The position numbers and the translations under genes were made by a program. A stretch of DNA of 64,000 bases. Source: Tricharina praecox (Eukaryota). Each line of letters starts with the position of its first letter. Position 1 is the stretch's first letter. Positions 10,899 through 64,000 of this stretch are shown in pieces. Location: NCBI RefSeq assembly GCF_024521635.1, contig NW_026250437.1:124001-188000 (forward strand), given 5' to 3'. The notes beneath the pieces are model-generated. The model was given only the letters and a program-made list of their open reading frames with translations, was not told the DNA's origin and did not search any database.

Positions 10899-11602
10899 AT
10901 AAACATATGTACCACACTGGCAGTGGCAGTGGCAGTAGCCACACCAACCCCCACCGCACCCCCTCCCTCCGCATCCCTCTACACCTCCTCCCCCACAGCC
11001 TCACCCCCTCCCTCAGCATGCGCCAGTACTCGACCAAGCCCTCGACCAAGCCTTCACCCGCCCCCTCCGCACTCCCACACCTCACCCCCACCGGCGCCGC
11101 ACACATGGTACCGATCCACACCAAGGCGGTGAGCACGCGCACGGCAGTAGCCGTAGGGACAGTGACGTTCAGCAACCCCACAGCACTCGAGCTGATCCGC
11201 AGCAACAGCAACAAGAAGGGCGATGTCCTCGCGCTCGCACGCATCTCGGGGATTATGGCCGCAAAGAAGTGTGCTGACATCGTCGTGCTGTGTCATCCCA
11301 TTCCCATCTCGTCGGTGGAGGTGGATGTGAAAGAAGTGGTGGGGGAGAGGGAGGGACTGGGGGGCGGGGAGGGTGATGGGAATGGGGTACTGCAGATTAG
11401 GGCGACGGTTACGTGTGAGGGGAAGACGGGTGTCGAGATGGAGGCGCTTACGGCTGTCATGGGCGCTGCGCTTGCCGTGGTTGATATGTGTAAGGCGGTC
11501 GATAAGAGGATTGTTGTTGGAGGTGTTAGGGTGATCGAGAAGAGGGGCGGTCGGAGTGGTGATTTCTTTGCGGATGGGCCGCCGCCGGTGGAGGGGAGGT
11601 AG
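10899..11602 (+). CDS. moaC: Cyclic pyranopterin monophosphate synthase (MoaC/MOCS1B; cnxC domain), likely the last exon of a MoaA-MoaC fusion
   Basis: Motifs LPHL...AHMV, KKGDVLALARISGIMAAKK, LCHPI, KTGVEMEALTA, DMCKAVDK and EKRGGRSGDF. Joined in frame to MoaA by intron 10720-10898. Confidence 0.93.
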
Positions 11603-11757
11603 ATGAATGGATCGATGGCTTTGGTTGTACATGGTGGTCACATTGATGTCTGGACTGCTACCAGTTGCTTGTCAAACTTGGTTGGAGAGAATCCAAACCG
11701 ATCCTACATATCGCATTTCATTCCAGTAGATCATCGGCAGTCTATATGATACGCCCT

Positions 11758-24281: not shown

Positions 24282-25713
24282 ATGGACAGTCGGCCGTCAC
24301 CACCACCAAACTCAACTCAAGGACCGGCACCCCAGGACTACGGCCATGGACTCTCCCGCTCTCTGGTGACGACCGCGTACGCCGTATCCATACTCCTGTT
24401 CGTCATTGGTACCATTTCGATTATCCTGAGGATATACTCCAGGGCGGTCGTGGTAAGGCTATTTGGTCTGGACGATTGGTTGATGACAAGTATTCTCGTG
24501 GGTCTATCTGTGCTATGGGTGGCGACGATAGTGGCTGATGAAAGGGGGATAGGTCTTTCATTCTGGGCAACATGCTATCCTCATGCTCTTCTTGCATTAT
24601 GGGGCGGGATTGTAAGTCTGCTCTTCGCGGTCAACGGGGATCCATTCAACTAACCTTCGTGATCAGACATAACAGTGTGCTGATGGAAACGGACCCCGGA
24701 AGTCTCGCCGTTCTCCCCAAGGTCCTCCTCGCCGAACAATTCTATTATGCATTTATGCAATTCATCATCAAGATGTGCATCCTAGCGTTCTACCTGCGCC
24801 TCTCACCACTCCAGACATTCCGCAGAGCCGTGTATGGTACCATGGCACTCAATACCGTCTGCACGGTCGTGATCTGGCTGGTGTACTGTTTGCAGTGCAT
24901 ACCTTTGAAAGGGTTCTGGGCTCCGACCGTCAAGGCGAAGTGCTTGCCGCCATTGTTCTTGAACTTTTTTCCGGCGTCGCTGGTAGGAACCCTTCGAGCT
25001 TTTCTCGGCTTCGCACAGAGGGTGCTGACAGAATGGTGCAGAACATCGCAACCGACGTCGTCATCTTCATCTTGCCTTTGCCAACACTGTTCAAACTCCA
25101 GACTAGCCTCAGACGGCGGGTTGCGGTGATGTCGATAATGAGCGTCGGCGGCATCTCCCTGATCGTGTCTTGTCTCCGACTCATCGTGTATGCCCCCCCG
25201 CGCCCTCTCTCTCTCTTTCTCCCGATCGTTCCTCCTTTCCGGTCAGCATCAATACTAACTCCGGGACCTAGCCTCCACCAATTCGCCGCCGACCTAGACT
25301 TTGCCTACCTCCTGGGCAAAATGGTGATCATGTCTGCTGCCGAGCTCGAGACGATGATCGTAGCGGCGAACATCCCGTCCTACAAAGCGCTCTGGGTGCA
25401 CGGTCTAGGGTGGAAAGTCTTCTGGGGCAGTACTCGGAACGAGAGCACCGGTGGAGCCCAGAAGCTCAGCGGGTACGAGCTCACGCACCACAGCCGGCTG
25501 CGCGCGCCCACGAAAGAGATCGGAATCGACACCGAGATCGGCCTGCACGATTCCCAGGAAGAGCTGTGTAAGAATGAAGCGGCGGCGGCGAGGGCAGGCG
25601 GCATACAGGTCTCGAGAGACTTCACCGTCACGAGTGATAGGTGTGGAGAGAGGGACGCGGCGAAGTTGGATAAAGAGAGGAATCGAGCGTATTATGATGT
25701 CGGCAATAGTTGA
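24282..25713 (+). CDS. PTH11-like (rhodopsin-domain, non-CFEM) integral membrane protein
   Basis: LRIYSR...FGLDDWLM, IKMCILAFYLRL, QCIPLKGFW...C, NIATDVVIFILPLP and ANIPS. Introns 24498-24552, 24612-24666, 24983-25041 and 25188-25271 keep the frame. Confidence 0.9.
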
Positions 25714-28046: not shown

Positions 28047-29559
28047 CTCGGTAATCGGGTTTATGGAAGCGGTATGGAAGGAAGTGGGATGATGAACTCG
28101 GCGGGTTGTTGGCAGGGAGTGATGCCGAGGGTTAGGTTGCAGGGACGGTACAAGGTGAAAAGATGAGGGAGTCTGCTGTGGTAATGAAAAGAACCTTCGC
28201 AGGCACAAACGGAGGGTCAGAGTTGTCGAATTTGGGGAGGGAGAGGGAAAGGGAGAGGGGGATGGGGGAGTACAGCAAGTTAGTCACTCAACTCTGCTTC
28301 ACTTGCTTCTGCGTTTCTGCGTAGGAATGGTGTGAAGTAGGAAGATGGAAATCGCTCTCTAGTAGACTACAATGTGGTGGGAGTGATGAGTCGTTGGTAC
28401 GGTTGTTTCTGATCTTGGAGATGGAGAAGGAGAAGGAGGAGAAGAAGAAGAAGGAGGTAGTACGTGGGAGGGGAAATGGAGAAAGTAGGGACCTCTAGTT
28501 GAGGCCGAAACCAGCACTGCATGCTCATTTTCATTTAATCGTCTGCTGGATGAATAAATGAGTTGTTACGTAGCTGCAATAACGGCTAGAGGAAAGAAGA
28601 AACAGCATACTCCAGAGAATAAACAAACAGCATACAAAGATAGAAAGCATCCTTCCACGGCACATTCACATTTGTGTGATGATCTAGCCATCTTCAAGTT
28701 TCTCTCTGTCGAGGGCATGTTCTGTGCAAGTACGGCCCCAGGGACGTCGACCATCTGCTCCGAGAAACAGGCGTCATCTGTTCAATACATTCCCGAGGCT
28801 ACGTGTAAAGCATTGAATGATCTTTCGTTAGCAGTCGCCCTCGGCCAGCAGCAGAAGGAAAACACAGATTAATCAATTCACCATCTTCTACGGCTCTGCC
28901 CTCTATTTCTAGTATTGCTTTTACCCTTTATCGGATTCTTCCATCGCCGTATCCATCCACCATCATCCCACACACCCGACTCTCGTAAAGCCGTTAGTCC
29001 TCATACGACATCAGTCTATTGTCTACCACGGCTACACGTCATCATTTCACAAACATCGAACAAAAATGCCATTATTCCTGTCCTGAGTAATTTCACCACG
29101 ATGACTTCCGTCTGCCTACGCTTGAATCCGAATTCGATACGAGAGCTCATAGTCATCAGCCATCATTCGATACTAGGGCTTGTCATCATGAGCCCTCATT
29201 CGGTACGAGTGCGATATAGTGAATAGCCATATTAAGAATCAATGGCAATAGAATGTTTCTTCAGGTAGATCTGTATTGAATAGCTCTACACGAAGCTATT
29301 CATTGATATTCAACTGAAGGGGGCCTTACGTGTCTGAGGAAAACCCTGCCAAAAGATGGTAGCATCTCGTAATTTCTTGTTCTTTATACGCCGGCAGCAT
29401 AGCTGGCAGCTTATGAGTCTTATCACTGTTTATTTCATGCATTTGCTTGTTTGTAAATGACGGACTCTACCACTGCGACCAGCTGTGGCAGTATGGGAGT
29501 GAGATCGGCAGGTTACCCTATCGAGCCACCCTACCCATCGAGCCAACCCGCCCATCGAG

Positions 29560-30150
29560 CCACTCCGCCGATCCTTCTTCACATCACTTCAACTCTCCTC
29601 TGTCCATTCTTCACATCACATCCACTCTCCTCTGCCCATCCGTCTTCACATCACATCCACTCTCCTCCGCCCATCCGTCTTCACATCACTTCAACTCTCC
29701 TCCGCCCATCCTTCTTCACATCACATCCACTCTCCTCTGCCCATCCGTCCTCACAACACATCTACTCTCCTCTGCCCATCCTTCTTCACATCAAATATAC
29801 TCTCCTCAGCCTCAGATCGTAGCCATGGCGGCAGCATTCTTCGACGGTGCAGCATTCTTCGACGGTGTTGCGCAGATCGTAGCCCGTCTTTCTTCACATC
29901 ACTTCAACCCTTCTCGTCTCATCCTTCTTCACATCAAATTTACTCTCCTCTACCCATCCTTCTTCACATCACATCTAGTCTCCTCTGCCCATCCTTCTTC
30001 ACATTAAATTTACTCTCCTCTACCCATCCTTCTTCACATCAAATCTACTCTCCTCAGCCTCAGATCGTAACCATGGCGGCAGCATTCTTCGACGGTGTTG
30101 CGCAAATCGTAGCCCGTCTTTCTTCACATCACATCAACCCTCCTCAGCCC
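29560..30150. repeat. Degenerate ~33-bp tandem array with an internal ~120-bp duplication
   Basis: More than 10 copies of a unit like ccatccttcttcacatcacatccactctcctctgc. The block cctcagcctcagatcgta.ccatggcggcagcattcttcgacggtg occurs at ~29804 and ~30052. Confidence 0.9.
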
Positions 30151-30208
30151 TCGGCGGCACGACCTCAACCACAACTGTGTACGCTGTCCCCGAGCCGACC
30201 GAGCCATC

Positions 30209-30328
30209 GGGTGGTACCATCAACCATCATCGATTCATCCATCCAACCGGGTGGTACCATCAACCATCATCGATTCATCCATCCAACCGGGTGGTACCAT
30301 CAACCATCATCGATTCATCCATCCAACC
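30209..30328. repeat. Perfect 40-bp tandem repeat x3
   Basis: gggtggtaccatcaaccatcatcgattcatccatccaacc starting at 30209, 30249 and 30289. Confidence 0.95.
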
Positions 30329-30569
30329 AGTGCCGCCCAACACCAACAAGACGGTTGATACGACTTTAGTTACATTAAGGGTCCTTTATGGAGCATACTG
30401 TGGGTCGGACGACTACTGCAAGACCTTTCACCCACGCGCAGATCTCCTCCCCATGGTTCGTCTTTTTGGACGTGACGAGAAATATCATCTACTATTCATC
30501 TTCAACAATGCTTTTCTTAACGGCAGGGAAGTTTATCGTGCATTCTTTCGATCAAGAAATTTAGAAACA

Positions 30570-48396: not shown

Positions 48397-50533
48397 AGAC
48401 TCTGTTACTCTGCTCAGCGCCCGCTTCCCCTTCCCCTTCCTGCAGTCCGGCCGGAACCACGGCAACGGCGACAGCAACGAAAAACGGAAACACGAGGTGT
48501 CAACAAACAGCACGACAAAGCAGCATGTGCTATTCCAGAGTAGCAGCAGAGTAGCAGCACGGTCAGCCATCAGCCATCCACCGGTAAGCGCGGCCCCGTG
48601 GAAGAGCAGCGTTTCAGCCACACAAGGCTGCTGGGGGAGGGGGTTTCGAGCGGGTGGCTAGTACTCTATGCATAGAGTACTGTAAACGAGGAGGCGTCTA
48701 AGCGCGGAGGATCTTACATACACTCCAGGCGCTGGCGCGTCCGGAGCGCGTCCGGAGCGCGGGCTAACAGGATACATAAAACTGAGGGGTGGGGTGGGGG
48801 TGGGTAAGATGGGTGAGTGATAGTTTGTGCACCACCCTCGCAAGTCGCGGATCGAGTGGCAGAGGGGGGAGGTGGGTTTTCGTTTTCGCAGCGGGGATGG
48901 GGTGTAGGAGTGAGAATGGAGTGTAGGAGCGGGCTTACGCGCTGGTGATGGGTAAATCCACGAGGCGGGTGCGAGGCGGGGTTTGTTTTTTTCTTTGACG
49001 TGCTGCATGCTTATGCGCATGCGCGTGAGCTTGAATGACTACTCCGAGAACTACTTGAGCTAGCTTCGTTGATGTTGTGTATGCTTCCAAGCTTCGTGAC
49101 GGACTTGATGCGGCGGAGCCAGGCTCTAGGTGCTCTGGAAGACTCATTCAAACTTTGGTCTGGGGATGATGAATGATGAATGAGGGTCATAATTTTGAAT
49201 AGCGTCACACAGATAACAAACAGTCAGCGACTTGTTATGTAAGTACACACTTTTTTACCCCTCGAACCGCAACCCAAGCTCAATAGCCCCCCATAGCCGC
49301 AACCCGCGCTCAACAGCCCCTCAATGCTCATCGCAAACCAACCCAGCGCCACTGACACTCCTCCCCCCCTCCTGCGCCGTTTTGATCTCCCCGCGATCCC
49401 CACATACTCGGAGATCCTTTCGAACTTCGTCACGATGATCCCCCGCCACGCTCGTGCACATACTTCCTAGGTACGCTGCTTCCGGCTGTTGACATCACCC
49501 AAGCGCCATTCGCCGCCGCAGGCCCGCATACCCCGCAGGCCGCAGACCCGTCCGAGGGTTTTCGGACATCGAACGGTGGGTCGGTGACAGCCCATGTGCT
49601 TTGTCTCGATGCGGAGTCAGATACCATCTCCTCGCGCGCTGCCTTTACCCAGAGTACTCTACCTACCGATGTGTAAGTCTTACGTAATCGCATGGCTGTC
49701 AACGTCAACGTCAACTTCCCCGGTGAACGAATTCGGCGCTGCTTCCTGGAGCTGCACTACCTAGCCTATAGTAGCCTGTCCACGACCCCACGACTACGTA
49801 GAATCGATATCTCCTGGAGGTGGATGGACTGGTTTGGATGGCGAACGGATGTCAGGAGGAGTGGAGCACAGTGCACGCTGAGTTGAGTTGAGTCGCCTAG
49901 GTAATGGCGGTTAACTATGTGCAAAATGGCTGAATGTGGTGTGAGTGCGGGTGGGGGTGGGCGTCGCTTGCCCCCAGGCGCTTCGAACGGCACAAAGACC
50001 TACCTAATCGACCGTCGACAACCGGTCGAATACCCATCGCCAAAGGGTCCCGGCGATCAATGCTATGGAGCTAGTGCTTAGAGGATTGAAACCGAAGATT
50101 CGCTTCTACACTGGTAATCCATATTTTGGTCTGGCTACATACTTTCCCAAACGTCGGTACACCGTACCCATCGGAAAGCCTGCTACATTCGGCTGTGGCT
50201 AATGTGTTCCTAGGTGTGTGTCTCTATTCACGTAAAATCACTCGGTATTGAAGTCACTTGGGTAAGAAGATCTGTGAAGAAACGGGGTATAGTACGACAC
50301 ACGGTTTGGGCGGTCAAGCTTCCTAGTACCTATTCAAGCGTTTTCGATACTATTGGGTGATTTACCGAATGGTAACAGCTCGACTCTGCACAGGGCTATC
50401 CATAACATGGCTTTTCTTTGCGGTGTCATGGAAATTCGGAATGCGATACTCAGTTACATTGAAGCCAAATTGAATGCTTTACTACGGCTAATTCTTCTCT
50501 AGGTACAATGTAGGCAGTCCCGGTGCCCGCTCC

Positions 50534-51569
50534 TCACTCATCGATCCTAACATAACTCGGCGCGGGCGTATCATCGCTCAGATCCGCCCAGGCCGTCCAA
50601 TGCCTTCCGACATGCCTCCTCTCCTCCGCCTCATCCGCAATCGCGACGGCCAGATCCGCGACCGAAATCCCATGCAGGCGACCCTCCATGGCCTCAGCAC
50701 TGTTCCTATCCCCCTTCAGCGGGAGAACATCATACGCCCACATATACACCCCCGTCCTCTTCCCGGGTCGATACAGAGAGCTGGGGCTAACAAAGGACCA
50801 CGCAAAATCCGCCCTGCCCTCAAAAAACATGAAGCTAGTCCTGCAGGCGGTCACAAACTCCATCGCTGCATCCCTGTTTTTCACCTCCTGTTCATACGTC
50901 TTTATCACCTTCTCCTCCACCTCCCCGGCCGTCCCCGCCTTCAGCGCGAGCCGCGCATTCCGGTACCCCCGCAACGCGACCCCCGACGGCCCCAGGCGCT
51001 CCTCCATGTACGTCACGTGCGCGTGCGAGTCGGCTATGCCGCGGCGGTAGTCGAGCCACCACTGCGGCGACTCGAGGACGGAGACGTGAGGTTGTCCCGG
51101 TAGGTGCAGGGATCCCGTGCCGCCGACTTTAATGAAATACGGGACGCGCGCCAGCTTTATTGCGAGGATGACGCGCCGGGTTACTTCGAGGAAGGGCACT
51201 GCACCCACCCACCAGGACTACGTCAGCATCGAGGGGGAAGCGGGGGGAAGCGGGGAGGGGAGGGGGGGAAGGGGAAGCACTGTATTTCAGCGCCGCGAAA
51301 CCGGCGGCGTGCGGGCCGTACTCGTCGACTATCACGTCGAAGCCGGCGAATGCCGCTGCGAGCACGGTGATGTCTGAGGTGATGTCGAGTTGCTTCGGCG
51401 TGTAGAGCGGGTGGATCCCGAGCTTTTCGGGGTGTCGAGAAAGACCGGTCACTCGGTGGCCGCGCGAGATTAGCTCCTTCGTTAGCCAGCTGCCGCCGAA
51501 GCCGGTGGCGCCAATTACGGCTATGTTCAGCGGAGTGGTGGGGGAGGGGGAGTAGGTGGTGGAGGCCAT
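50534..51569 (-). CDS. NAD(P)-binding Rossmann protein (YwnB/NADH-flavin reductase-like, atypical SDR)
   Basis: IAVIGATGFGG...RGHRVTGLSRHP, VGGTGSL, WSFVSP...PGKRTG and ISVADLAVAIADEAE. Intron 51199-51280. Confidence 0.88.
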
Positions 51570-51910
51570 TGCAATAAGGGAGGTGTGGTTGGTTGCCTAG
51601 GCATCGAGACGATGGGGGTGGATATTATATGAGTCTGTGCCATTGAGACGGTCCAGCAAAGATGGATACTGGCAGAAGCTATCCGGCAGCAGGTGGGGCA
51701 GATCATCTCCAGATCCCCAAATGTGGGGTTTACTCTGAATTCCCAGCAGGGTTGTGGACCCGAGCCCGGCCGAAGCGGTGGTGGATCTGCCAAACCCTCA
51801 AGATGGAGCCTGTATAGTGATTTACGATACTTCTGGAATCACGACAAGTACCTCAACATCGTCTAAAAACGTATAGCAAGTAGATAGGTGTTACAAAAAG
51901 CCCCACAAAA

Positions 51911-52975
51911 TCACGGCAACCTCCCAGTCTTTAGCCCCTCCTCAACCCACTCCTTCAAATCCTGATCCAGCAGCCCCATCAGCACCGGATCCGTTCCCTC
52001 CTCCACCCAGCTAACATCATGCGCAAGCGCCAGATGCACTCCCATCCCCCTCAGCACCCTAAGCTTGGCCATTGTATCCTTCGCCGCCGGAATATCCACA
52101 TGCAGCGCCCCCTGGCTGCCATCGGGATTGCACCACGTGGCAATATCGTATTTCCCCTCGAGGAGGCCTCTGGGAATTGTTATTTAGCCACATTCAAGCA
52201 TTGCAAGGAAGGATAGATGAAACAGCGTACCGTGAGTGACAGCAATCACTAGCCAACAGCACCCACTCGCCGCCTTCAATCCTGACGGCGCACGCCAAGT
52301 TCCCGCCCATATGTCCCGGCGCCTGGATAACCCACATGGTGCCATCGCCCAGAAAGTCCATCGCCCTCTCGAACGGCCCAAACCTCTTCCACGGGCCCCG
52401 CAGCGCCTCCCAGCTCTCGGTGCGATGCTCCGGATGGAAGAAATTCCCGTCCCACGGAACATCCGCTAGCTCTTCTCCGGTGGCCGAGAAGTGCCCGGCG
52501 CCGCAGAACTCCGCCGTGCCTGGCCCGAAGTACCCGGTTGCCCGCGGAAACAGGGCGCGGATGGGCCGGCAATGGTCCCAGTGTGCATGGCTGAAGATCA
52601 CAGTATCCACCCCCTCTGGAGGTACTCCCGTACGCCTCTTGATCTGCTGCTCGATCGGCTCTGGTGGAGCGAAGGGGCCGAGCGGGAACATGTGTTGGCG
52701 CACCCACGGAGTGTAGTCGTCTGGATTCTTCACGGGAGTCAGTAAGGGGGCTTGGAAATGGCAGGCCAACCAAGGGACGAACGAACGGAGGTGTTGCCAA
52801 CATCCCACACGATCTGACGGCCGCTGGGATGCGAGATGTGGAAGGCCCAGTTGAACATTGTAAATGGAGTGGCTGCGGCGCCGGCGTGCAGGAAGTTGGC
52901 TGTGGCGGTGAAGCTGCCGCCCGCGAGGAGGGTGAGCTCCACGTGGCTGTCGGTTTGGGGTAGCGGTGAGGACAT
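51911..52975 (-). CDS. Metallo-beta-lactamase-fold hydrolase, AHL-lactonase-like
   Basis: WDVG, SHAHWDH (HxHxDH), DFLGDG, APGHMGGN, LASDCCH and LAHD. Introns 52728-52786 and 52170-52230. Confidence 0.9.
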
Positions 52976-53642
52976 GATCCTGTGAGGAAGGGTTATTGGA
53001 CTGTCTTCAGCAATCTGAGGGGTGGGATGGAACGTGCAATGGTACTGACGCCTCACTACACATGGCTGCGAATCTTTACAGTGATACCGAATCGATAGAG
53101 TGAACTCCTTTTCTAGCACTCCTCTGGTCCTCCAGCGGTTTGATAAGGGCATGGCCCAGCCCTCGAGGGGTATCGCTCGTACCATCCCGGCACGGCTCAT
53201 GGGCGATGCCGCAGGTGTTCTTGGTGAGTCCCAAGCAGCAGTCTCGTGGCCATCAACACATGCGTCTGACCCCGTCCGCCGTAGCTGCGACGCAACTACC
53301 CCTTGTTGAAGCGAGTAGCTCTCTCCGCAATTGCGGGTCCGGGAATTGGGATCCCGTTCTGATTTTGTGGGGCCGACGTTGCCATGTGGAGATCTCTGGC
53401 CAGGGCGCGTTTGAGGTGTAGAGTAGAGGTGGGGCGATGTGGGGTAGTTTATCGTCGGAACGTCGCACAAGCGACATGCTCGGCCACTACCAGCGTCACT
53501 TGCGCCGACATGGCAGTACGGTACGGGATACGTAGACCGCGTAATAGCCGGCTGGCAATAAGTTCTCGCAATGAAAAGATTAAAGAAAACTGTTTGTGCT
53601 CCAGAGTCAACCTATCAATTTCAATCCACCGCCGCAATCACA

Positions 53643-54775
53643 ATGGCAGAAAACTCAAACTTCTTGGATGTCAACTTCGGCTTCATCGGTATGGCTCCCC
53701 TCTCTCTATTCTCTCCACCCAACTAGCTAACATCTCAGGCCTGGGAGCAATGGGCTATCCCATGGCGATGAACATCTGCAAAAAGATGTCGCCAACCAAG
53801 GCCCTTTACATAACCGATGTGAGCCGTCCGGCAGTCGAAAAGTTTCTTGCGCAGGCGATGCAAGAGAACTGGGGAGGTCTCGTGGTGATAGTGGAGACGG
53901 CCAAGGCGGTGGCCGAAAATGCGGAGACAATCTTTACAATTGTCCCCGCAGCAAGCCATGTAAGGGATGTGTACCTCAATCCCGAAACGGGGGTGATTGC
54001 TGCAGGGAAGAGCGAGGGAAGGCTGTGTGTCGAGTGCTCCACGATCGATCTGGCGACTACGCGGGATGTCGGAGAGAAGATCATGCAGGCGGGGGTGGCG
54101 GAGTATGTTGATTCTCCTGTCTCGGTGCGTATCCTGCCCACATTGCTGTCAAGATCCAGATGCTGAGTGTCATTACAGGGCGGCGTACCAGGCGCCACAG
54201 AAGGAACCCTCTCCTTCCTCCAAGGCTGTCCGCCTGCCTCCGCTCTCTCCGCCCGTCTCACCGCGGTCTCGCTTCTCATGGCGTCCCCCGACAAAATATT
54301 CCCCTGCGGCCCGCTCGGCAGCGGGCTAGCCGCCAAGATCAGCAACAACTACCTCTGCGGCACCAACCTGCTTGCGTCCGCCGAGGCGATGAACTTCGGC
54401 ATCCGCAACGGAGTCGACAAGCACATCCTGTACAAAGTCATCCAGAACAGCACGGGACAGAACTTCATGCTTGACAAGGTGACGCCTGTGCCGGGAGTCA
54501 ATCCCGCCGCCCCGAGCAGTAGGGATTATCAGGGTGGGTTCAAGGCGCAGATGATGGTTAAGGATATGACGCTTGGCGTCGAGGTCGCTGAGGCGACGGG
54601 GGTGGTGGCGACTATGGGCAGGGCGGCGTTGGAGGTTTACAAACAGGCGGCAGTGGATCCGAGGTGTATCGTAAGTTGTTTCTCTGGAGTGGGTGGAGTT
54701 GATCTTGAAGCTAATCAGTGACGACAGGATCGTGATGTGAGTGTTATCTGGCGGTTTTTGGATGGACCGGAGTGA
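53643..54775 (+). CDS. 3-hydroxyisobutyrate dehydrogenase-like (beta-hydroxyacid dehydrogenase family)
   Basis: FGFIGLGAMGYPMA, ECSTID, DSPVSGG..GA..GTL, GLAAKISNN and GGFKAQMMVKD. Introns 53689-53738, 54125-54178 and 54671-54727. Confidence 0.92.
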
Positions 54776-55341
54776 AGATTTTGTCCCGCGAGGGTTGCCG
54801 GCAGGTTACTGGTAGAGTGATATGGCGAGAATTAAGCAAGACCTCTTCAGAACTTTTAATATCACTATGGTTCAAAATTTCTGATGCGAGTGATGTGTCG
54901 TGCCCATGTATTGGTGACCAGCAACTGTGAACTAAAGCGAACCCGTAAAGCTGAATGAAAACTTGCATGATTGACTATCTCGGTGGCTATTGTGGCAGAG
55001 CGATGGTGGAGCTGTCGGCGAGAGGAAACGGATGTAGTTAGTGTGAATGGCAAGGGCAGCCAGCGGGGAGAGAGCGAGCATGAGAGACCTTCTCTCACTT
55101 TCTCTCTCATCTACAGAATAGACGATCAACCTCTAACTCCTCTTTCTTCCGTGTGTGCTCTCCGCTCGACCCCACCACCGGCTTGGAAGGGTATTGACAG
55201 AAGAGCCCTTTGCAAAACTAGTTTCCCAGCTTCGCTGGCCTACCGTGGTCAGGACGAATTACTTCACAAGCAGACGACCACCGCAATTTATTCACGATAG
55301 TCCTCAAGTCCAAGCATCAACACCACCTCTCTAGGATGTAT

Positions 55342-56268
55342 TCACTTCTCCACTCCATACGCCTTATCCCACAACTTCATACTCTCCACTCCAATCCACC
55401 TCTGACTCTCATCTGGATAGTCCAAGACCGGTCTCATATATATCTCCTCGACCGAACATTCTCCACACAGTCCCGTCTTTGTCCCGTCGTTAATGAACAA
55501 GTCATATGCTTTCAGTATCGTGCTCATCGGGGTGGTATGTTTCTCCGGCCAGACGGCGAGCAGCTCTTTTGGCGCGAGCGAGGTTGCGACGAAGCCGGGG
55601 AGAATCGTGTTCACCGTGATGTTCTCGCCGAGCAGGTTGGGGCCCATGCTGCGGGTGAAGCCGACGAGCTGGTGGTGGTGGTGGTGTCAGTGATGCTTCA
55701 AGTGAGAACCTATAAGGGAAGGGGGGGAGCATACAGCATGCTTCGCAGCAGCGTACTGCGGCTGCTGCGCCATCGGATACAAGCCAGCAGGGGAGCTTGT
55801 GATAACGACCCTGCCGCCGCTGCCCGGGTTTCGACGGAAATAATGCACCGCCAACCACGTCCCGTACACAGGTCCGAGCAGATCCACCTCGATAGTCTGC
55901 ACATTTGGCTTCCTAGGCGTGCTCTCATCCCCCGGGACACCAGTGGGGCCAAACATCTGTTCGCGATCGGCGATGCCCGCGTTCGCGGCGTGGAAGTCGA
56001 TGCGGCCCCATTTGTCCCAGGCGGCCTTGAAGAGCGCCGCTTGGTCGTCCCACGAGGAGACGTCGGTGCGGATGAAGATTGCGGAGTCGCCGGGCAGAGT
56101 GGCTAGTGCAGATAGGCCGCCCGCTTCGTCGATGTCGGCGAGTGCGACCCGCCAGCCTTGGCTGATCAGGTGCTTGCTGATGGCCAGGCCGATGCCGGAG
56201 GCAGCGCCGGTCACCACGCCGACGCGAGCGGACGACGACGGGGAGGAGGAGGAGGGCGCAGTAGACAT
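55342..56268 (-). CDS. Classical short-chain dehydrogenase/reductase (15-PGDH-like)
   Basis: VVTGAASGIG, NAGI, TSS, YAAAKH and VNTILPG. Intron 55669-55734. Confidence 0.92.
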
Positions 56269-57504
56269 CTGCCTATGGATTTCTGTGGGGAGGCTTCGTC
56301 TGGTCGAGGTTTGACAGATACCGGTACCTATATACACGCAGCAAGTCCACCCTCTCCTCGTGAGACTACTAGTGCAACTCGGTATGCTGAACAGCCCCCC
56401 ACAGCTTCATTTTGTGGGGCACCCCGTCCTAGCTAGCCGAGGTGGGCTCGAATATTTGCCAGCAAAGGTATCATAGAATGTCCGCGGTGGAGCTAAAAAG
56501 GTACCCGGTGCCCCTCGTTGGTACCCGGTGCCCGCTGGTTATGTGTTCCATCGGTTGAGAAGTAAATTTTTTGGTTGGTTGGTATTTCAGTGACTTTGGA
56601 GTCAATCCAAGTCAGTGGCAGGTCAATCCATATTAATGACAAGTCACTAGGTGTGCACATAGCAAGTCAGTAACTTTTATGATTCAAGCGCAAAAAATTC
56701 CACTCATCTGGTCTGTGCTGTGCCCATAGACAAATTGGCCAGTATACAGTTATGAAATGCAAGCAAGCAGATCCTTAGTAAAATTATTTCAATGATAGTT
56801 GCTACAATATCTCGATTCTCGGGGTTCTCTCTTTTTCTACCTACCCCACTTTCTGTCTTGTTGCATTGTCTTCGTTGCATCGATGCCTGAAATTATTGCT
56901 GTGGCTGGTGAGGGTGTCGCGTATCATACATATCGACGAGGGCACCGTACCGGGTAGATACCTTTTTAGCTCCACCGCGGGCATTCTAGAATCTATGGTC
57001 TATAGATACCTTTGCTCGAATATTTACACTTTAGCACGGCCTGGCACTGCATTGACGAATACGCCTAGTTAGGTAGCGGGCGCGAGGCGCAACTAAACCC
57101 TGGCGATGGCCTAGGCATGGTGAGATTTCGGGCATCCGGACTTTCGGTGGTCGGCATGGCCTAGGTGCCAGCTATGTGGGGTCCTAGAAAACTACCCCAC
57201 GCGGATATCCACGATGACACAACCACCATAGGTATCTCCAGCCCAACCAAACCAAACCAAAGAGGCCGTAGGTATGCTAAAGATGATCGACGTCTGGGTG
57301 GGTGAATGAGTATTGATATCCCCAGGCTTATCCAGTAGGTATAGTAGACTGGGTATCAGCATCTATTTTGGATATAAATCTTGCCTCCGCTTTGGTTACA
57401 GTTACATACGAATTTTTATCAGCCCGCTGCCCCCTATCATCATCATCACAATTCACCACTGCCCTACCTACCTACCTACGTCCCCGCCCGCCCGCCCGCC
57501 CGAA

Positions 57505-59402
57505 ATGGCACTGCCCATCTACATCTACGCCATCCTCGTGCTCGCCGTAGCCCTTGCAGTCGAAAAACTGATCAAATCTAGAAAGCCGCTGCCGAGCGGC
57601 TATCGTCGAGTTCCTGGGCCGAAGGGCTTGCCGTTGATAGGGAATACACTGCAGATGGCGAGAAATCCCCGCCCGCAACAGCAGGTGAGGGATTGGGCAG
57701 ATCAGTACGGAGAGCTGTTTATGATCCAGATGGGGTATGAGAACTGGGTGTTTTTGAACAGGTATTTACGGATTATTTTTTGTTTTTTGGGGGTGGGTGG
57801 CATGTGCTGACGCTGAGGATGTAGTCCCGAGGCGGTCAAGGAGATCCTGGATAAGCAGTCTGCCATAACGTCGTCGCGAGTGCCGAGCCCCGTCCTTATG
57901 GACCTGGTCTCGGGCGGGATGCGGTTCTTGCTCATGCCGTACAGTGCGCCGTGGCGGAAGATGCGCGGGATCGTGCACCAGCTGCTGACGCCGCGCATGT
58001 CCGGGACGTTTGTGCCGAGTCAGGAGTTTGAGGCGAAGCAGCTCGTCTTCGATTGTCTGACGGATAATGAAACCGGCATGGACTTCTATCAGCATGTTAG
58101 GAGGTATACCACCAGTGTGGTCATGACGAGTACTTATGGAAGGAGGATTCCGAAATGGGTGAGCCGCTGTGTCTCGGCCCTCGGAGAGAATTGCGCTGAT
58201 CATGGGCAACAGGATTGCGATGATATCAAGCAGATCTATGGCGTGATGGAGGACTTCTCCAAGACCTCTGCACCAGGCTACTTCCTCGCGGACACCTTCC
58301 CGCCTCTTGCCAAGCTCCCGGTATTCATGCAAAGCTGGCGCAAAGAAGCCGCCGTATACTACGAAAGGCAGTGCAACATTTGGATGCACTACTGGTCCAC
58401 GCTCTCCTCGCAGATCGCCACTGGCGACGCCCCGGCCTGTTTCGTGAAGCAGTTCAAAGACACCGGATACGAGAAGATGAACATTAGCGAGATGCAGGGC
58501 GCATTCGTGGCCGGAACCATGATCGAGGCGGGATCGGAAACGACTTCGGCGGCACTGAATATTGCGCTGCTACATCTGGCGGCGTTCCCACAGAAAGCCA
58601 GAGCGGCCCAGGAAGAGATCGACCGTGTCGTCGGGCCCAAGAGATGTCCTTCCTTCGTCGACGAAGACCAGCTGCCGTATATCCGCGCCATCGCGAAGGA
58701 AGTACTGTGCGTACCCCCTCCCCCTCCCCCTCCCCCTCCAGATTGTCCCTGATCGCGCGGCGACTCACGCCCAACTATGCAGCCGGATGTTTCCAACTAC
58801 CACCTTTGGAATCCCGCACTACACGGATGACGACGTGAAGTACAAGGACTTCATCATCCCGAAGGGCACCGTAGTCGTCATAAACCAGCAAAAACTGCAC
58901 TATGATCCCCAGCGCTGGGAGAACCCGTTCGAGTTTCAGCCCGAGCGGTTTCTTTCCTACCCGCTGAAGGCGGGGGCGTACACTGCCATGGCGGATGCGA
59001 GTAAACGGGACCATTTCTCGTTTGGAGCTGGTACGTGCTTCCCGTTCTTCGTACGTTATCAGTACTTGACTGATTGTTCCCACAGGCCGAAGAATCTGCC
59101 CGGGCATGCATCTTGCCGAAAACTCGCTGTTCATCACGCTGGCGAGTCTGCTGTGGGCGTTCCACATTCTGCCGCCGTTGGATGAGAGCGGAAGGGAGGT
59201 CCCCGTTGATACCAGCGAGGACGCGTTTCTGCTCGGCAGCGGGATTCTGGCGAAGCCGTTCAGGCTAAGGTTGCTGCCAAGGAGTGAAGAGATTGAGGGT
59301 ACGATTAGGAGTGAGTGGGAGATGGCGAGGAAGGAGGGGTTTGTGCTCGGCGGTAATAGAGTTATGGTTGATGGCGTTTTCTGCGTAGGGTGTGTTATGT
59401 AG
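57505..59402 (+). CDS. Cytochrome P450 monooxygenase (OrdA-like appearance)
   Basis: N-terminal TM anchor, PGPKGLPLIGN, EAGSETT, EVLR, PERF and FSFGAGRRICPG. Introns 57762-57824, 58159-58212, 58707-58782 and 59031-59085. Confidence 0.95.
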
Positions 59403-59745
59403 GGAAGGAAAAGTCAATGGTACACACCTGTGAAGAGGATACTTTCGGACTGTAGAAATCTTTTTGGTCGCAGATCTGTACATGTAGATCGAAAAGCCTT
59501 CGATGGAAGATTGGATTGGATCAATTCAGACTGACTCACAGTATGTCACTCATAATTACCATTCGTTTCTAGGTGCGATGCTTGTTTCTGGAACTCTGAT
59601 AGCCCTCTCGTGAGCTTGAACGTACATATAGACTCTAAACTTGTGAATGAAAATCATTTTGAGTAAGCCGACAACCTTAATTCCCGTCCCTCATCCACAA
59701 AAGACAGCGCATCAACTCTCCGCATATACAGGATATATCAGCCCA

Positions 59746-60585
59746 CTACCCCTCGACCTCCTTCAAAAACTTCAACACCTCCTGCTGACACAGCTCCGCA
59801 CACTCCGCATAGATCTCATGCCCCTTCCCATCGACCTCGACCAACCTGGCCCCCTCAATCTGCCCCTTTAGCCACCTAGACGCCTCCAAGGGCACAGCGG
59901 CGCTCCTCGTCGGCGCCAGTATCAGCGTCGGCGTCCTAATCCCCGCCAACACCGGGCGCGCATCCAGCGCGCCCAAGAACTCCGCATAGCCCGCCAGGCC
60001 CTCAGCCTGACTCTTTGCGACCTCATCGAGCCACCAGCTCAGATACGCCGGATCCTCGCCGGCAACCGTCCCGCCCACGGCGGCCAGCGCCTGCGCCCAC
60101 CCACGACTGCCGAGCGCCCGGCACGCGCCCGGCCAGTCCTCGTAGCCGAAGGCGAACAGCTCTTGCGCGGCGGGCGGGAGGTGCGTCGGCGATGCGCAGA
60201 GAGTTAGCGACGCTACGCGCGACGGGTGCGCCGCCGCAAAGAGCATAGATACTATGCCGCTGGTGCTTTCGCCGAGGAGGTGCGCGCGGGTGACGCCCGC
60301 TTGGTCGAGGGTTTCGAGGATCTCGGATAGGATTGTCGAGACGGTGTAGGGGTAAGGCGAGTCCGGGGAGGGGAAAGAGGACCGCCCGTGACCACGGATG
60401 TCCCGTCGGATGATGCGGAAGTTCCGCGATAATGAGGGGATCCAGTGGTACCAGAATTGAGAGGTGCGCGCGAAGCCGTGCTGGATTAGGAGTGTGGGCG
60501 GCGGGGCGGCCCATGGGTCTGTGAAGTTGTCGATTTCGCAGTAGGAGGTTTGTCCGTTGGCGTGGGTGGCGGTGAAGGACGGCAT
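59746..60585 (-). CDS. Alpha/beta hydrolase, enol-lactonase (PcaD)-like, intronless
   Basis: QHGFAR, DIRGHGRS, nucleophile elbow GESTSG and C-terminal GHE. Likely start MPSFTATH at 60585. Confidence 0.88.
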   Translation of the reverse strand: MPSFTATHANGQTSYCEIDNFTDPWAAPPPTLLIQHGFARTSQFWYHWIPSLSRNFRIIRRDIRGHGRSSFPSPDSPYPYTVSTILSEILETLDQAGVTRAHLLGESTSGIVSMLFAAAHPSRVASLTLCASPTHLPPAAQELFAFGYEDWPGACRALGSRGWAQALAAVGGTVAGEDPAYLSWWLDEVAKSQAEGLAGYAEFLGALDARPVLAGIRTPTLILAPTRSAAVPLEASRWLKGQIEGARLVEVDGKGHEIYAECAELCQQEVLKFLKEVEG

Positions 60586-60814
60586 TGCGGCCGTGGGAGT
60601 AGGTAAGGTAAGGTAGGATATGGGATATGGAATGCTGGATGAGAGCAGCTGGGCAGGTTTTATATTTGCAGCGATCAATGGGCAATACCCCACTTTACTT
60701 TGATCTAGGTATTCCCGGTCTCAATCTCCAGCATGAATGGTTACCGCAAACACAAGCTTCATTTCTCGCATCTCAAACACACATCGTTACTCTACTCTAC
60801 TCTACTCTACTCCA

Positions 60815-61240
60815 TTATTCCAACTCCCCGCTCTCTTTCATCTCCCCCAACACCCTCTCCGCGACCTTCGTCCCCTCCAACCCGGCGGGCATACCACAAT
60901 AAACCGCAACCTGCAACATCACCTCCCTAACCTCCTCCATAGTGGCACCATTCACAATCGCGCCCCTAACATGCAGCGCCAACTCCGGCGACCTATTGAG
61001 CGCGCACAACATGGCAATATTCAGGAGACTCCGTGTTTTCCGCTCGAGCCCGGGCCGCGTCCACACGGCGCCCCAGCACGCTTCTGCCACCAGGTCTTGA
61101 ATGGGCTGCGAGAAACCCGTGGCAGAGGCGAGGGAGCGGTCGACGTGTGCGTCGCCGACGACCGCGCGCCGTACGGCGAGGCCCGCTGCTTGTAGCGTGG
61201 CGTGCGCGGAGGCGATTTCGGAGGGGGTGGGGGTGCTCAT
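60815..61240 (-). CDS. Carboxymuconolactone decarboxylase (CMD/AhpD-like, PcaC-like), intronless
   Basis: [46 protein letters not shown] and YCGMPAG. Confidence 0.92.
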   Translation of the reverse strand: MSTPTPSEIASAHATLQAAGLAVRRAVVGDAHVDRSLASATGFSQPIQDLVAEACWGAVWTRPGLERKTRSLLNIAMLCALNRSPELALHVRGAIVNGATMEEVREVMLQVAVYCGMPAGLEGTKVAERVLGEMKESGELE

Positions 61241-61493
61241 TGTGGCTGTAGAGAGAGGAATTAGTATTATCCACTGCGAGGATGGGGATGGGTGCACACC
61301 GATTGCAACTTTGATGAATTCTGAGAAGGATGGAGGCGCCGAGTGAGAACTTGTGTATGTACGAATTTGTGTGGTTTAATGGGTAGCGGAAGGCATGTTC
61401 GGCGGCGCTTATACACCACCGAATTATTCCCCTACCTGTTCTTCACACCGTTGTAATTAAATCTTCTCAAGCCTAACATTGACAGACAACCCC

Positions 61494-61596
61494 ACCCCGC
61501 ACATTGCGGGGTAGGGTTGGCTGGGCTGAAATTGTGGGGTACATTGATAGTCCGCCCGACATAACACTACCACACGCAGGGACCCTGCTACCCCAC
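61494..61596. promoter_or_regulatory. Cluster of GYGGGG boxes upstream of the CMD gene
   Basis: Palindrome accccgca-cat-tgcggggt (61494-61512), aattgtggggta (~61530-61541) and taccccac (61589-61596). Confidence 0.55.
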
Positions 61597-62003
61597 ACGA
61601 TCAACGGCGGAGATGGGAAGTCTAGGGTGGGAACGTAAAGCTTGACTGCAAATCCCGTTTGTTATCCGAAAAACATCCTGCTCAGCCGAGAGGGCGAAGG
61701 GGTTTGCAATAATGCAAGAGCCGGTCGTAGGCTGTAGTCGGCCTGGCAAATTTGAAGGCTATGACAAGCTGTCCGACGAAAATGCGGGTGCGATATTGCG
61801 AGGAAAGGAACCCCTATGCAGGCAGGATGCTTCGTAATCCATAGTATACATGGTATTGGTATCTAATATACAAAACAACACGTGCAGAAGACGCCCAAAC
61901 GCCATTGGCCGTCACAACTCCAGAACACAACCAAACCCCACAATCCAAGCTCCATCTAACCAAAATAGACTCCTTAGATACCAACCGCAAGCCCCCATTC
62001 AGA

Positions 62004-64000
62004 TCACGCTGCCCGCCTCCTCGCAGCCTCAAAATGACTCGCCAACTCCCTTAGCGCCGCGCCCATACATGGCGTAATACCCCCTGTATTATCTCCCATT
62101 AGCCATGATTCCCCCCTCCCCCACCAGCACGCGGACCGCCGTGGGAAAAACTTACAAACCCAAGTGTCATCCATCATCGTACTCCAGAGCAGGACAATTT
62201 CCTTCGCTAGGCTTGTATCGTTGGAGATCTCGATATCGACGTCTTGCAGCAGCGTGCGGATCTCGCGGAGTACCTCGGACTCTTCGTGGGTCAGTGGCGG
62301 TTGAGTCTCTACCGTGTGAGTCCATTTTGCCAGGAGGAGGACTGTGGACGTTAGTTAGTAGTGTAGGTGGGATTCATGAAGGGGAGGGGTGAAATACTCC
62401 CGCACCAGCCCGTAAGACAGTGTTCAATCCCCCAATGCAGTGCCGCCGTGCGGCGTACGAGTACATATCCGACCTTGATGGGCTCGTGCAGAACCTCATA
62501 GACAGTTCTGATCAACCTGATGAGTTCGGGGTACCTGACCAACGGCTGCGCTACGAACGCGGCCATCGCGCCGGCCACATACGCGCCATCGTGCGCGTGT
62601 AAGAGGCTCTTGCTCGGAAAGCCAAAGTCGTGCGCAAAGTGCCGGACATGTGCCAGACGCAGAAGTGAGACGACATTGAACGGGAGCGGCGAGTCCGGGC
62701 TTGACGGTTTCAGCTCGCTCTCGTGGCGGCCGAAGAAAAGAATTTTTCGACAGCGGCTCAAAATTCCTTCTGCGAGACGGGAGAGTTCTTGGCCGCTTTG
62801 CTCACGTCCCCACATCATGGCGGAGCATTGGCCGGATAACCAGAGCTGCGAAAGCACGCCGTGCATCAGTGCCAGCGCGCCGAAGGCGGGTATCGTGCAG
62901 TCGGGCGGGAGGTCAAGTGGTTTGGCAAGGAGGATGTGGTCGATGCAGGATTGGTAAGAGAAGCTATGCGGATATCGTGCCGCAATTTCAGCCCATTCCT
63001 GGCCTGGTGCCGCTTCCCAGAGCTCTTCGGCACAAGGAAGCTCCTCGTCCAGGTCCGAGACTAGTGTCGAGACCGGGTAGGAGAAGGTTATGTTCAAGAG
63101 GCTACCGAAGACGAAGATTCCGTAGCGGATCCGTTTTGCGGTCTCCCGCTGTATCCAGGTGTGCCAGTCGGAGGTCTCGGTATCAAAGGGAAGGGGACGG
63201 TGATGGGATATTGTTGTATTTGCTCGGAAGTACTGCCGACAGTTAAGTATGGCACATGTAACGGTGGGGGAGAGGGCAACCCACATTGACCACCACTGCC
63301 TGCTCCAATATTGCTTCCTCCTTCAATATCGGATCATTGCTCCACGCACCAAAGCATGCACACAGCAGCCGTGTCTGTATGATCCATAACATATCACTCT
63401 GCGAAGGTTGCATCTCCCTTTTACTAGCCTGAGTAATCTCGTTAGTCACATCACCCCCACTCGCAGAAACCGGGAAAACGAACGTGATCCACCAGCTTCT
63501 TCGCCCAATCCCGCAGCGTCCTTGCCCTCTTACGTTCTAATGAATATAGTGCTCCAATGCTGAGCATAGCTAATGTCACTGGAGCAGGTGATGACCCAGG
63601 ATCAAACGACGGGCTATGAACGATCGGCAGATGCTGATGAAATGCGGTGAAGTACGTGGCCAGCAATCGCCGTAGGGTGTCCCTATTCGGCAGCACGAAG
63701 CCCTCCACCAACTCTTCCGGATATCTGGCCTTGATCCCCGCAAACATTGAGTCCCGCGTCGCCGCATCCACCTCGGGTCGCGCAAGTGCGGCAGCCGCAG
63801 TGCGAAAGCGCATCTTTTTCTTCGGCCCCCCTGATGAGGTCGCAGATATCGAGGGTGTTCGTGGACATGCGCCGCCGATGGTGTGAGGTGTGGCGACTTT
63901 TGGACTGCTAGTGTGTCCGTACAGTACCCCGTCGTCATAATTGTGTTGGTGCTGAATAGCCAGACCGGCAGGTGACTCCGCCGCGGAAACCGAGAGTGGG
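62004..64000 (-). CDS. Fungal-specific transcription factor (Fungal_trans domain, C2H2-associated type); 5' end outside the window
   Basis: YFTAFHQHLPIVHSPSF, AMLSIGALY, WIQRETAKR and LPCAEELWEA. Spliced 3' exons give ILLLAKW...DTWVWGITP...RRAA* with the stop at 62004. The DNA-binding domain is not visible. Confidence 0.85.

Follow-up and report, generated by a model that had tools for sequence, protein, structure and literature searches.

Gene content of the locus

The window discussed here is a 64,000-nucleotide stretch of the genome of the fungus Tricharina praecox (G000:C34:124001-188000, from an assembly of 38.4 Mb in 104 contigs); the 29 kb that follow it were analysed as well. The subject is a cluster of genes for small-molecule enzymes at the right end of this window. 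A preliminary description had placed eight genes at 50534..64000, and all of them are there, with open frames and GT-AG introns. The families it named agree with Pfam (NAD_binding_10, Lactamase_B, NAD_binding_2+11, adh_short, p450, Abhydrolase_1, CMD and Fungal_trans), and its two divergent promoter pairs are located at 52976-53642 and 56269-57504.

These eight genes are real, but they are the left part of a 13-gene cluster that runs past window position 64000: the transcription factor extends beyond this position and is followed by five further genes. These (MBL2, HIB2, FMO, CYPb and MFS) were found when the sequence beyond 64000 was inspected, as the preliminary description had advised. The 13 genes encode two cytochromes P450, two metallo-beta-lactamase-fold (MBL) lactonases, two enzymes similar to 3-hydroxyisobutyrate dehydrogenase (HIBADH), an SDR (short-chain dehydrogenase/reductase), an alpha/beta hydrolase, a carboxymuconolactone decarboxylase (CMD), a flavin-reductase-like protein, a PnpA/HspB-type FAD monooxygenase (FMO), a major facilitator superfamily (MFS) transporter and a C2H2 regulator. 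The overlooked genes include the FMO and CYPb, which is the truly conserved P450. The right end of the cluster lies near G000:C34:199574.

50534..51569, minus strand: NAD(P)H-binding flavin-reductase-like protein, accessory, 317 aa, one intron (51280-51199), PF13460
51911..52975, minus strand: MBL1, MBL-fold lactonase, 314 aa, HxHxDH, two introns, PF00753
52976..53642, unstranded: divergent promoter MBL1/HIB1, four GTGG(A/G)G sites
53643..54775, plus strand: HIB1, HIBADH-clade beta-hydroxyacid dehydrogenase, 323 aa, three introns, PF03446+PF14833
55342..56268, minus strand: classical SDR, conserved core, 286 aa, one intron, PF00106
56269..57504, unstranded: divergent promoter SDR/CYPa, seven motif sites
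57505..59402, plus strand: CYPa, cytochrome P450, accessory paralogue, 549 aa, four introns, PF00067
59746..60585, minus strand: alpha/beta hydrolase, 279 aa, intronless, serine elbow and invariant His, PF00561
60815..61240, minus strand: CMD, PcaC-type without CxxC, 141 aa, PF02627
62004..64000, minus strand: transcription factor, start at G000:C34:188976 (976 bases past the window), PF04082
G000:C34:190486-189551, minus strand: MBL2, nearest structure 4-pyridoxolactonase (E 6e-9)
G000:C34:191276-192357, plus strand: HIB2, HIBADH-like
G000:C34:194587-193198, minus strand: FMO, FAD monooxygenase
G000:C34:195130-196995, plus strand: CYPb, second P450
G000:C34 about 197800-199574, plus strand: MFS transporter

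No open reading frame (ORF) of the size of a polyketide synthase, non-ribosomal peptide synthetase or terpene synthase is present in the ORF lists of the window or the next 29 kb, a subset of which was scanned with Pfam, in agreement with the preliminary description. Likewise, Pfam found no such synthase and no prenyltransferase among 83 flanking ORFs of 11 related loci in other fungi.

Support for the gene models

The catalytic motifs are intact. Both MBL proteins have HxHxDH, both dehydrogenases the catalytic Lys motif and the SDR YxxxK; the two P450s keep ExxR, PER and the haem Cys, and the hydrolase its Ser elbow and His. Two sequencing runs, X1 and X2, are regarded as RNA by guess. Among the joints listed, at least 10 of the 15 introns predicted within the window are skipped by their contigs at the bases expected, namely one in the NAD(P)H-binding gene (bridged in X1), both in MBL1, all three in HIB1 and the four in-window introns of the transcription factor. 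Nothing was obtained from runs X3 and X4. The CYPa region (about 56300-59660) has almost no coverage in the four runs, which is evidence neither way.

Family assignments are of varying depth. HIB1 has TIGR01692 as its top model and matches HIBADH-clade structures in the PDB at E 1e-28. The nearest PDB entry to the NAD(P)H-binding protein is Lmo0794 (E 2e-9), and the protein is possibly a quinone reductase. For MBL1, the AttM and 4-pyridoxolactonase models score far under their cut-offs. The transcription factor has 863 residues with two C2H2 fingers and a Fungal_trans domain. The closest relative of the CMD is from Pyronema (75%). The paralogue pairs share 31% (MBL), 41% (HIB) and 41% (CYPa and CYPb) identity, and by this measure they are old.

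At the left edge of the cluster, X1 and X2 contigs also pass over two GT-AG introns, one on the plus strand (50153-50213) and one on the minus strand (49696-49760), with no convincing protein frame there. One X1 contig covers both the NAD(P)H-binding gene and MBL1 and has an extra non-canonical joint immediately upstream of MBL1 (window 52979-53036). These transcripts may be antisense, untranslated-region or non-coding RNA.

Conservation in fungi

The cluster is partly conserved across many ascomycetes, and subsets of its genes are linked across Pezizomycotina. The alpha/beta hydrolase belongs to the conserved core, with relatives at 54-60% identity in Dothideomycetes, Sordariomycetes, Leotiomycetes and Eurotiomycetes. 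Its neighbours were counted in 12 loci that look fungal and are 10 kb or longer (with a 20-kb limit; L024 and L034 are near-duplicates, and L015, L033 and L042 have flanks in common). Orthologue-level neighbours were CYPb in eight loci (49-63%), the SDR in five (39-49%), the transcription factor in four and the MFS transporter in four. Rarer neighbours were the CMD, HIBADH and FMO (three loci each) and the MBL and NAD(P)H-binding proteins (one each, the latter at 51%). Additional genes among the 83 flanking ORFs encode carboxylesterases, which adjoin the hydrolase in L015, L022, L025 and L027, an aldehyde dehydrogenase and FAD oxidases.

Linkage can also be read from accessions. The hydrolase and CMD are linked in Bisporella (KAH8585668/669), Lachnellula (TVY48169/172), Apodospora (KAK3312724/716) and Pseudogymnoascus (VE00_03324/03325). 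With the CYPb orthologue of L023 as the P450 query, hydrolase and P450 are linked in Plenodomus (NX059_003419/418), Fusarium mangiferae (FMAN_10957/10961) and F. sarcochroum (FSARC_4793/4798). Further orthologue identifiers are Pc21g22400, LEMA_P095190, SNOG_15745, NECHADRAFT_86143 and PFICI_07613, and F. solani has CYPb relatives. Thus, homologues are co-located in other fungal genomes, as the preliminary description required of a true cluster. There are counter-examples: the Neofusicoccum CMD is listed on another contig than the hydrolase, and the listed P450 lies off the hydrolase contig in Bisporella, Cladophialophora immunda and Exophiala viscosa.

Merged gene models join CMD, HIBADH and P450 in Colletotrichum and HIBADH and P450 in Neonectria. 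As a side observation, proteins P0264, P0277, P0278, P0286, P0312 and P0338 (Colletotrichum, Neonectria, Neoarthrinium and Phlyctema) join CMD, HIBADH or SDR to the conserved P450, and these are probably merged gene calls.

An example of a similar arrangement with expression data is Pyronema domesticum, in which gene_11782-11787 are HIBADH, MBL, CMD, P450, hydrolase and FMO, matched by annotation and not by sequence. In the accessible part of that study, HIBADH, MBL and CMD change by log2 -3.5, -4.8 and -3.5 on char compared with sucrose, the hydrolase and FMO are flat, no value is given for the P450, and the 3-oxoadipate pathway is reported as induced on char (PMC8579045).

The closest bacterial relatives of the hydrolase (L048-L158, mostly 36-46%) are largely from Binatia and often lie beside PagL-like and PEP-mutase-family genes. 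No cluster-like gene set was found in these contexts, which are unrelated, and the hydrolase is therefore no guide to the substrate.

Promoter motif and regulation

Three 8-mers that overlap around CCCCAC are each found in seven of the nine intergenic regions of the cluster, and no 8-mer reached seven in 200 random draws of equal length. The corresponding pattern, GTGG(A/G)G(T/A/C), has 42 sites in 5,948 nt and is present in all nine promoter regions, where 5.8 sites would be expected from its rate in non-ORF DNA of the genome (0.98 per kb).

Since the pattern was picked on the cluster's own promoters, its behaviour in other loci matters. It was examined in 34 loci taken as fungal (L005-L037 and L042, from 80 metagenome loci), reduced to 23 at 80% DNA identity. 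A site lies upstream of the hydrolase in 18 of the 20 other loci that have at least 400 nt upstream. The 9,313 nt on the upstream side hold 32 sites, against 7 in the 9,575 nt downstream (P 2.5e-5), and the remaining 81,508 non-ORF nt hold 86. The shared motif and the linkage of homologues in other fungi together place the grouping beyond chance.

The cluster is probably under the control of the C2H2 factor, which would act at these candidate sites. Its finger helices presumably resemble those of Adr1 and CreA, so that either the cluster's own factor or CreA could bind. As a genome-wide regulon marker the motif was dropped, being too common, and no enrichment was found at three dioxygenase loci.

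The SDR/CYPa promoter also contains an inverted duplicate (56460-56540 and 56930-57000) with the same motif context at 56487 (plus) and 56975 (minus). It is possibly a small transposon remnant.

Three features of a catabolic cluster are thus found together: 13 contiguous genes with intact enzymes, a transporter and a regulator; linkage kept in distant genomes, with varying membership; and a common cis-regulatory motif. The cluster very probably has a catabolic role. In the preliminary description the genes were taken for a putative catabolic cluster that carries its own transcription factor; the shared motif, the co-location in fungi and the lack of a core synthase in the sequence searched all agree with it.

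The flavin monooxygenase and its bacterial counterparts

Among proteins of solved structure, the FMO comes nearest to PnpA (E 2e-37) and HspB (E 1e-23), with the next far behind. These two are also its closest characterised relatives, its FAD motifs are intact, and by sequence it can be classed as a PnpA/HspB-type enzyme; plasmid matches bearing those names are about 30-33% identical. PnpA is 4-nitrophenol 4-monooxygenase and HspB is 6-hydroxy-3-succinoylpyridine 3-monooxygenase. Both swap a group para to a ring hydroxyl, and HspB breaks an aryl-acyl bond.

The CMD leads to bacterial plasmids. Among 882 plasmid records, the top match and another at 64% are from Rhodococcus qingshengii F2-2 and R. 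rhodochrous GD02, both of which are FMO matches too; the Rhodococcus plasmid CMDs are 58-65% identical to the fungal one. Three uncharacterised plasmid clusters can be listed:

R. rhodochrous GD02: KUM34_RS29555-29635
R. qingshengii F2-2: JKI97_RS32465-32530
Sphingobium sp. EP60837: EP837_RS18785-18885

The two Rhodococcus clusters consist of an AHL-lactonase-family MBL, hydrolase, P450, SDR, FMO, CMD, HIBADH, a second P450 and MFS. They add a PcpA-like hydroquinone dioxygenase (E 3e-67), a maleylacetate reductase, a VanB-type reductase and a formaldehyde dehydrogenase, and the GD02 cluster additionally has an annotated succinate-semialdehyde dehydrogenase (SSADH). The cluster of EP60837 has P450, FMO, MBL, SDR, esterase, CMD, MFS, SSADH, dioxygenase and maleylacetate reductase. 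The two Rhodococcus plasmid clusters (L214 and L215) are near-syntenic (NZ_CP083976.1 about 143-160 kb; NZ_CP092103.1 about 282-306 kb). In the accessible text of the GD02 paper, R. rhodochrous GD01 is without the GD02 plasmid, and only vanA2B2 and formaldehyde genes are mentioned for it, with no description of the cluster (PMC9618137).

FMO relatives (E 1e-30) were found in 29 of 401 genomes of the family of G002, a Sphingobium. Five of these sphingomonad loci were examined, and all five have a CMD within 7 kb of the FMO, 44-48% identical to the fungal one, together with hydrolases, SDR and transporters. A similar search gave one match in 172 genomes of the family of G001 and five in 401 of its order, which is uninformative. 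The closest plasmid FMO (40%) is from Massilia and lies between an FAD oxidoreductase-cytochrome c pair and an annotated hydroxyquinol dioxygenase with maleylacetate reductase. This setting can be likened to the pinoresinol route of Pseudomonas SG-MS2, with its PinAB hydroxylation, putative ipso-hydroxylase and methoxyhydroquinone. In total, CMD stands beside FMO in eight of 14 bacterial loci, two of the eight having been chosen through CMD. In a CMD tree of 25 rows, which includes no true PcaC, the fungal proteins fall among bacterial-looking rows, and the donor is not identifiable from it.

The sphingomonad loci (L207-L211, in G752, G790, G662, G574 and G739) carry a TonB receptor, MFS, one or two PnpA-like FMOs, alpha/beta hydrolase, a CmcJ/NvfI oxygenase, class C esterases, CMD, two SnoaL proteins and SDR, the full list being from L207. 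This cluster looks undescribed.

Proposed pathway

Two products can be read from these gene sets. The bacterial counterparts imply a route that yields a hydroquinone, probably methoxylated. The set of lactonase, HIBADH, CMD and SSADH implies that it also yields an aliphatic lactone with a CH2OH group beta to the carboxylate. Both would follow from cleavage between the ring and C-alpha of a C-alpha-oxidised lignin dimer or lignan. The leading but tentative reading, which may quite possibly be right, is intracellular alkyl-aryl cleavage of a para-hydroxyaryl compound with an oxygenated side chain, such as furofuran lignans or related lignin dimers. The chemistry is inferred entirely from family or analogy, and the substrate likewise.

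The route would start with import by the MFS transporter, most likely of a furofuran lignan of the pinoresinol or syringaresinol type, or of a lignin dimer. Next, a P450 would hydroxylate the benzylic ring-ether carbon, or the SDR would oxidise a benzylic alcohol, or both, to give a 4-acylphenol. The FMO would then hydroxylate the ipso carbon and break the aryl-C-alpha bond, releasing a (methoxy)hydroquinone and an acid or lactone. The (methoxy)hydroquinone would pass to a hydroxyquinol dioxygenase whose gene lies outside the cluster. Opening of the lactone or lactones would fall to the MBL lactonases and the alpha/beta hydrolase, joined by a carboxylesterase in other fungi; the HIBADH-like enzymes would oxidise the CH2OH group beta to the carboxylate, and the CMD would remove CO2. 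With a beta-beta lignan, the route would on paper run twice, by way of 2,3-bis(hydroxymethyl)succinate to succinic semialdehyde, and this would account for the presence of two P450, two lactonase and two dehydrogenase genes. The preliminary description had proposed P450 hydroxylation, lactone formation by the SDR, ring opening, oxidation and decarboxylation. Its logic is retained here, with lactone formation by the SDR as only one of several possible orders.

A hydroxyquinol-type dioxygenase does exist elsewhere in the genome, on contig C28. There it forms a divergent pair with a group A hydroxylase (L166 4300-8550, G000:C28), and the pair is a likely lower route for hydroquinones.

Precedents come from two organisms. 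In work of 1981, Kamaya reportedly observed the conversion of syringaresinol to mono- and bis-lactones by F. solani. For Pseudomonas SG-MS2 with pinoresinol, the accessible portions of three papers describe hydroxylation of C-alpha, ring opening that leaves a ketone, and formation of methoxyhydroquinone by a putative ipso-hydroxylase, and they state that Fusarium solani uses similar steps (PMC12997858, PMC12607616, PMC10795516).

Several observations weigh against the lignan reading. The fungal cluster has no ring-cleavage gene. The steadiest fungal core is hydrolase, CYPb and SDR, without FMO or HIBADH within 10 kb; FMO, HIBADH and CMD each occur in 3 of the 12 long loci and MBL in 1, and 2 of the 12 have no partner gene at all. 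An FAD oxidase in L027, tried as a starter oxidase of VAO/PinA type, proved to be BBE-type. The motif presumably also fits CreA, and it is common genome-wide (245 paired sites against 142 in the control). The hydroxyquinol dioxygenase promoter, with four motif sites (P 0.09), is not enriched. In bacteria, six of the 14 loci have FMO without CMD (Massilia, Agrobacterium, G410, Sulfitobacter, R. qingshengii djl-6 and R. koreensis), and Variovorax has CMD, HIBADH and MBL without FMO. Likeness across the domains is confined to CMD (44-65%), FMO (33-41%) and, more weakly, HIBADH (31-33%) and MBL (28-31%); bacterial P450s reach at most 27%, and the bacterial hydrolases do not match the fungal genes. 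Finally, we know of no PcaC-type CMD that decarboxylates a beta-oxo acid.

In its most specific form, the claim would be a dedicated intracellular fungal pathway for lignans or C-C-linked lignin dimers, with benzylic oxidation by P450 and alkyl-aryl cleavage by a flavin enzyme, and with the core taken to succinic semialdehyde by lactonases, HIBADH-type enzymes and a CMD acting as a beta-oxo-acid decarboxylase. This is conceivable, with the balance tilting towards doubt.

Alternative explanations

The alternative that survives best, although unlikely, is that the compound degraded or detoxified is a phenolic lactone or ether of another sort (isocoumarin, phthalide, coumarin, depside or isoflavanoid). 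In this case an FMO of TerC type would hydroxylate beside a carbonyl with loss of CO2, lactonases or esterases would open the ring, and the P450s would hydroxylate a methyl group or the ring. We take TerC to be kin to the cluster FMO. In the accessible text of one paper, TerC hydroxylates 6-hydroxymellein, which then decarboxylates (PMC8453496); that of another also deals with TerC chemistry (PMC10257657). In databases, CYPb relatives bear names derived from AtE or OrdA; the hydrolase has carboxylesterases at its flanks in the four loci named above; and the bacterial hydroquinone modules fit equally. However, such a substrate leaves no clear job for two HIBADH-clade enzymes, the CMD and the bacterial SSADH, and the broad distribution, which takes in saprotrophs, endophytes and pathogens, speaks for a plant substrate that is universal.

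Nearest to the route of the preliminary description is the catabolism of a non-aromatic cyclic ether or furan, of tetrahydrofuran or furoate type, by way of P450, lactol, SDR, lactone, lactonase and hydroxy acid. Here the CMD and hydrolase would act like PcaC and PcaD on a carboxy-butenolide to give succinic semialdehyde. This would account for the hydrolase, P450 and SDR core, the adjacency of CMD and hydrolase, their likeness to PcaC and PcaD, and the SSADH. It is nevertheless improbable, since the phenol-type FMO and, in bacteria, the hydroquinone dioxygenase, maleylacetate reductase and O-demethylation genes are left over, and, in the part of the P. domesticum study that is accessible, HIBADH, MBL and CMD drop on char (PMC8579045).

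Catabolism of a hydroxypyridine, similar to vitamin B6 or succinoylpyridine, is suggested by the structure nearest to MBL2 (4-pyridoxolactonase), by HspB as the second match of the FMO, and by bacterial pyridoxine breakdown, whose list of functions parallels that of the cluster. Yet the 4-pyridoxolactonase equivalog is missed by far (39.7 bits for MBL2 and 24 for one exon of MBL1, against a cut-off of 325), no amidase or deformylase was seen, and the bacterial counterparts cleave hydroquinone, not dihydroxypyridine. These points make it quite improbable.

Just as improbable is a biosynthetic or tailoring cluster that starts from a primary precursor and needs no core synthase. P450s, FMO, SDR, MFS and a transcription factor are usual tailoring parts, and MBL domains can close lactones, as in MpaDE. 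However, no transferase or synthase was found in the cluster or as a partner in the scanned flanks, hydrolases, dehydrogenases and a decarboxylase dominate, and the bacterial counterparts adjoin ring-cleavage genes.

It is very improbable that the cluster is a piece of the beta-ketoadipate pathway that was moved or duplicated: the CMD narrowly misses the PcaC equivalog (TIGR02425, 146.4 bits against a cut-off of 155.7) and is the sole PcaC-type CMD found in the genome, and the hydrolase is the genome's best match to the PcaD model (90.2 against 255.85, E 1e-25, hence no equivalog), but orthology to ChdA or AN5232 is unsupported in FAMeDB, a separate PcaD-like gene adjoins an intradiol dioxygenase on C83, and, in the accessible text on P. 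domesticum, char induces the 3-oxoadipate pathway while repressing this cluster or leaving it unchanged (PMC8579045).

Neighbouring features

To the right of the cluster lies a Gln/Pro-repeat protein with low-complexity tandem repeats that are open in several frames (L003 9418-10000 into L004 1-607); we presume its C-terminus to be of vWA type. Elsewhere, the window contains an RPE65-family oxygenase at the left edge (2-796), apparent MoaA, MoaC and Pus7 genes, presumed from motifs (9269-13575), a fungal rhodopsin-domain (Pth11-like) gene (24542-25713), and further low-complexity tandem repeats open in several frames (29417-30369).

Significance

Fungal catabolic clusters are already known as a kind; this widespread gene set was not found described. 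The preliminary description did not recognise the combination either, and no description was found in a literature search whose scope left out supplements and most subscription papers. The set is absent from the accessible main text of Gluck-Thaler and Slot (10.1101/184242), which has no CMD or HIBADH and whose supplementary cluster tables may hold the cluster, and from what is accessible of PMC5007530 and PMC6486533. A CMD mentioned in Alternaria under H2O2 stress could not be tied to the cluster CMD, and the ESM Atlas gave generic names only.

According to the accessible part of a 2026 review, there are no reports of specific pathways in fungi for lignin model dimers (PMC12997858). The occurrence of the cluster in moulds, endophytes, wood-dwellers and post-fire cup fungi, together with the motif and the plasmid counterparts, provides a short gene list for this gap. 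If the lignan reading is true, the pathway would be widespread in ascomycetes, and its module of FMO, CMD, HIBADH and lactonase would be common to undescribed Rhodococcus and sphingomonad clusters. It would supply the genes behind the 1981 F. solani syringaresinol chemistry, provide PcaC-like CMDs and HIBADH paralogues with a function beyond their named pathways, and offer candidate enzymes for lignin valorisation, namely a benzylic P450 and an aryl-C-alpha-cleaving FMO. Even with another substrate, a widespread catabolic cluster not found described would remain.

Comparison with known systems

The fungal beta-ketoadipate pathway (ChdA/AN10520 and AN5232/NRRL3_00837) and bacterial PcaC/PcaD share with the cluster a CMD fold adjoining an alpha/beta hydrolase fold. 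The cluster itself has no dioxygenase, cyclase, CoA transferase or thiolase. Judged by FAMeDB tables rather than direct alignment, the hydrolase is not the ChdA/AN10520 orthologue and the CMD not that of AN5232. In the accessible tables, the A. germanicus ChdA orthologue is KAL3483254.1, and AN5232 is scored absent in Halenospora and Venturia (PMC13094099). The A. germanicus counterpart of the cluster hydrolase is KAL3485855.1, and both Halenospora and Venturia carry the cluster-type CMD. Thus, the beta-ketoadipate analogy of the preliminary description holds for the fold and fails for orthology. The accessible parts of pathway papers on Scedosporium and A. niger show no such cluster (PMC8283699, PMC12388069).

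A parallel with Fusarium MBL1 had also been drawn. The FDB1/FDB2 clusters are similar in being fungal xenobiotic clusters with an MBL hydrolase, FAD enzyme, transcription factor and transporter. As far as the accessible tables go, they have amidases, NAT1, dienelactone hydrolase and CoA enzymes, and their rows include no P450, CMD or HIBADH (PMC10512309). The gene list of the cluster contains no amidase, NAT1 or dienelactone hydrolase beside its MBL1.

The characterised relatives of the FMO are known from pathways whose partner genes are absent from the fungal cluster. The Rhodococcus and Sphingobium clusters have in common with it the list of families (CMD, FMO, HIBADH, MBL, SDR, hydrolase or esterase, one or two P450s and MFS). 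They differ in carrying hydroquinone ring-cleavage and demethylation genes, and their P450, SDR and hydrolase are not orthologues of the fungal ones.

The closest chemical likeness is to the partly characterised oxidative (+)-pinoresinol pathway of SG-MS2, with which the cluster was compared through the accessible descriptions only. Both would follow the same logic of benzylic hydroxylation, a ring-opened aryl ketone, an ipso-hydroxylase and methoxyhydroquinone. As described, SG-MS2 starts with the VAO/PCMH flavocytochrome PinAB and routes the second ring to protocatechuate. The fungal cluster contains no PinAB-type flavocytochrome; instead it has P450s, which may substitute for it.

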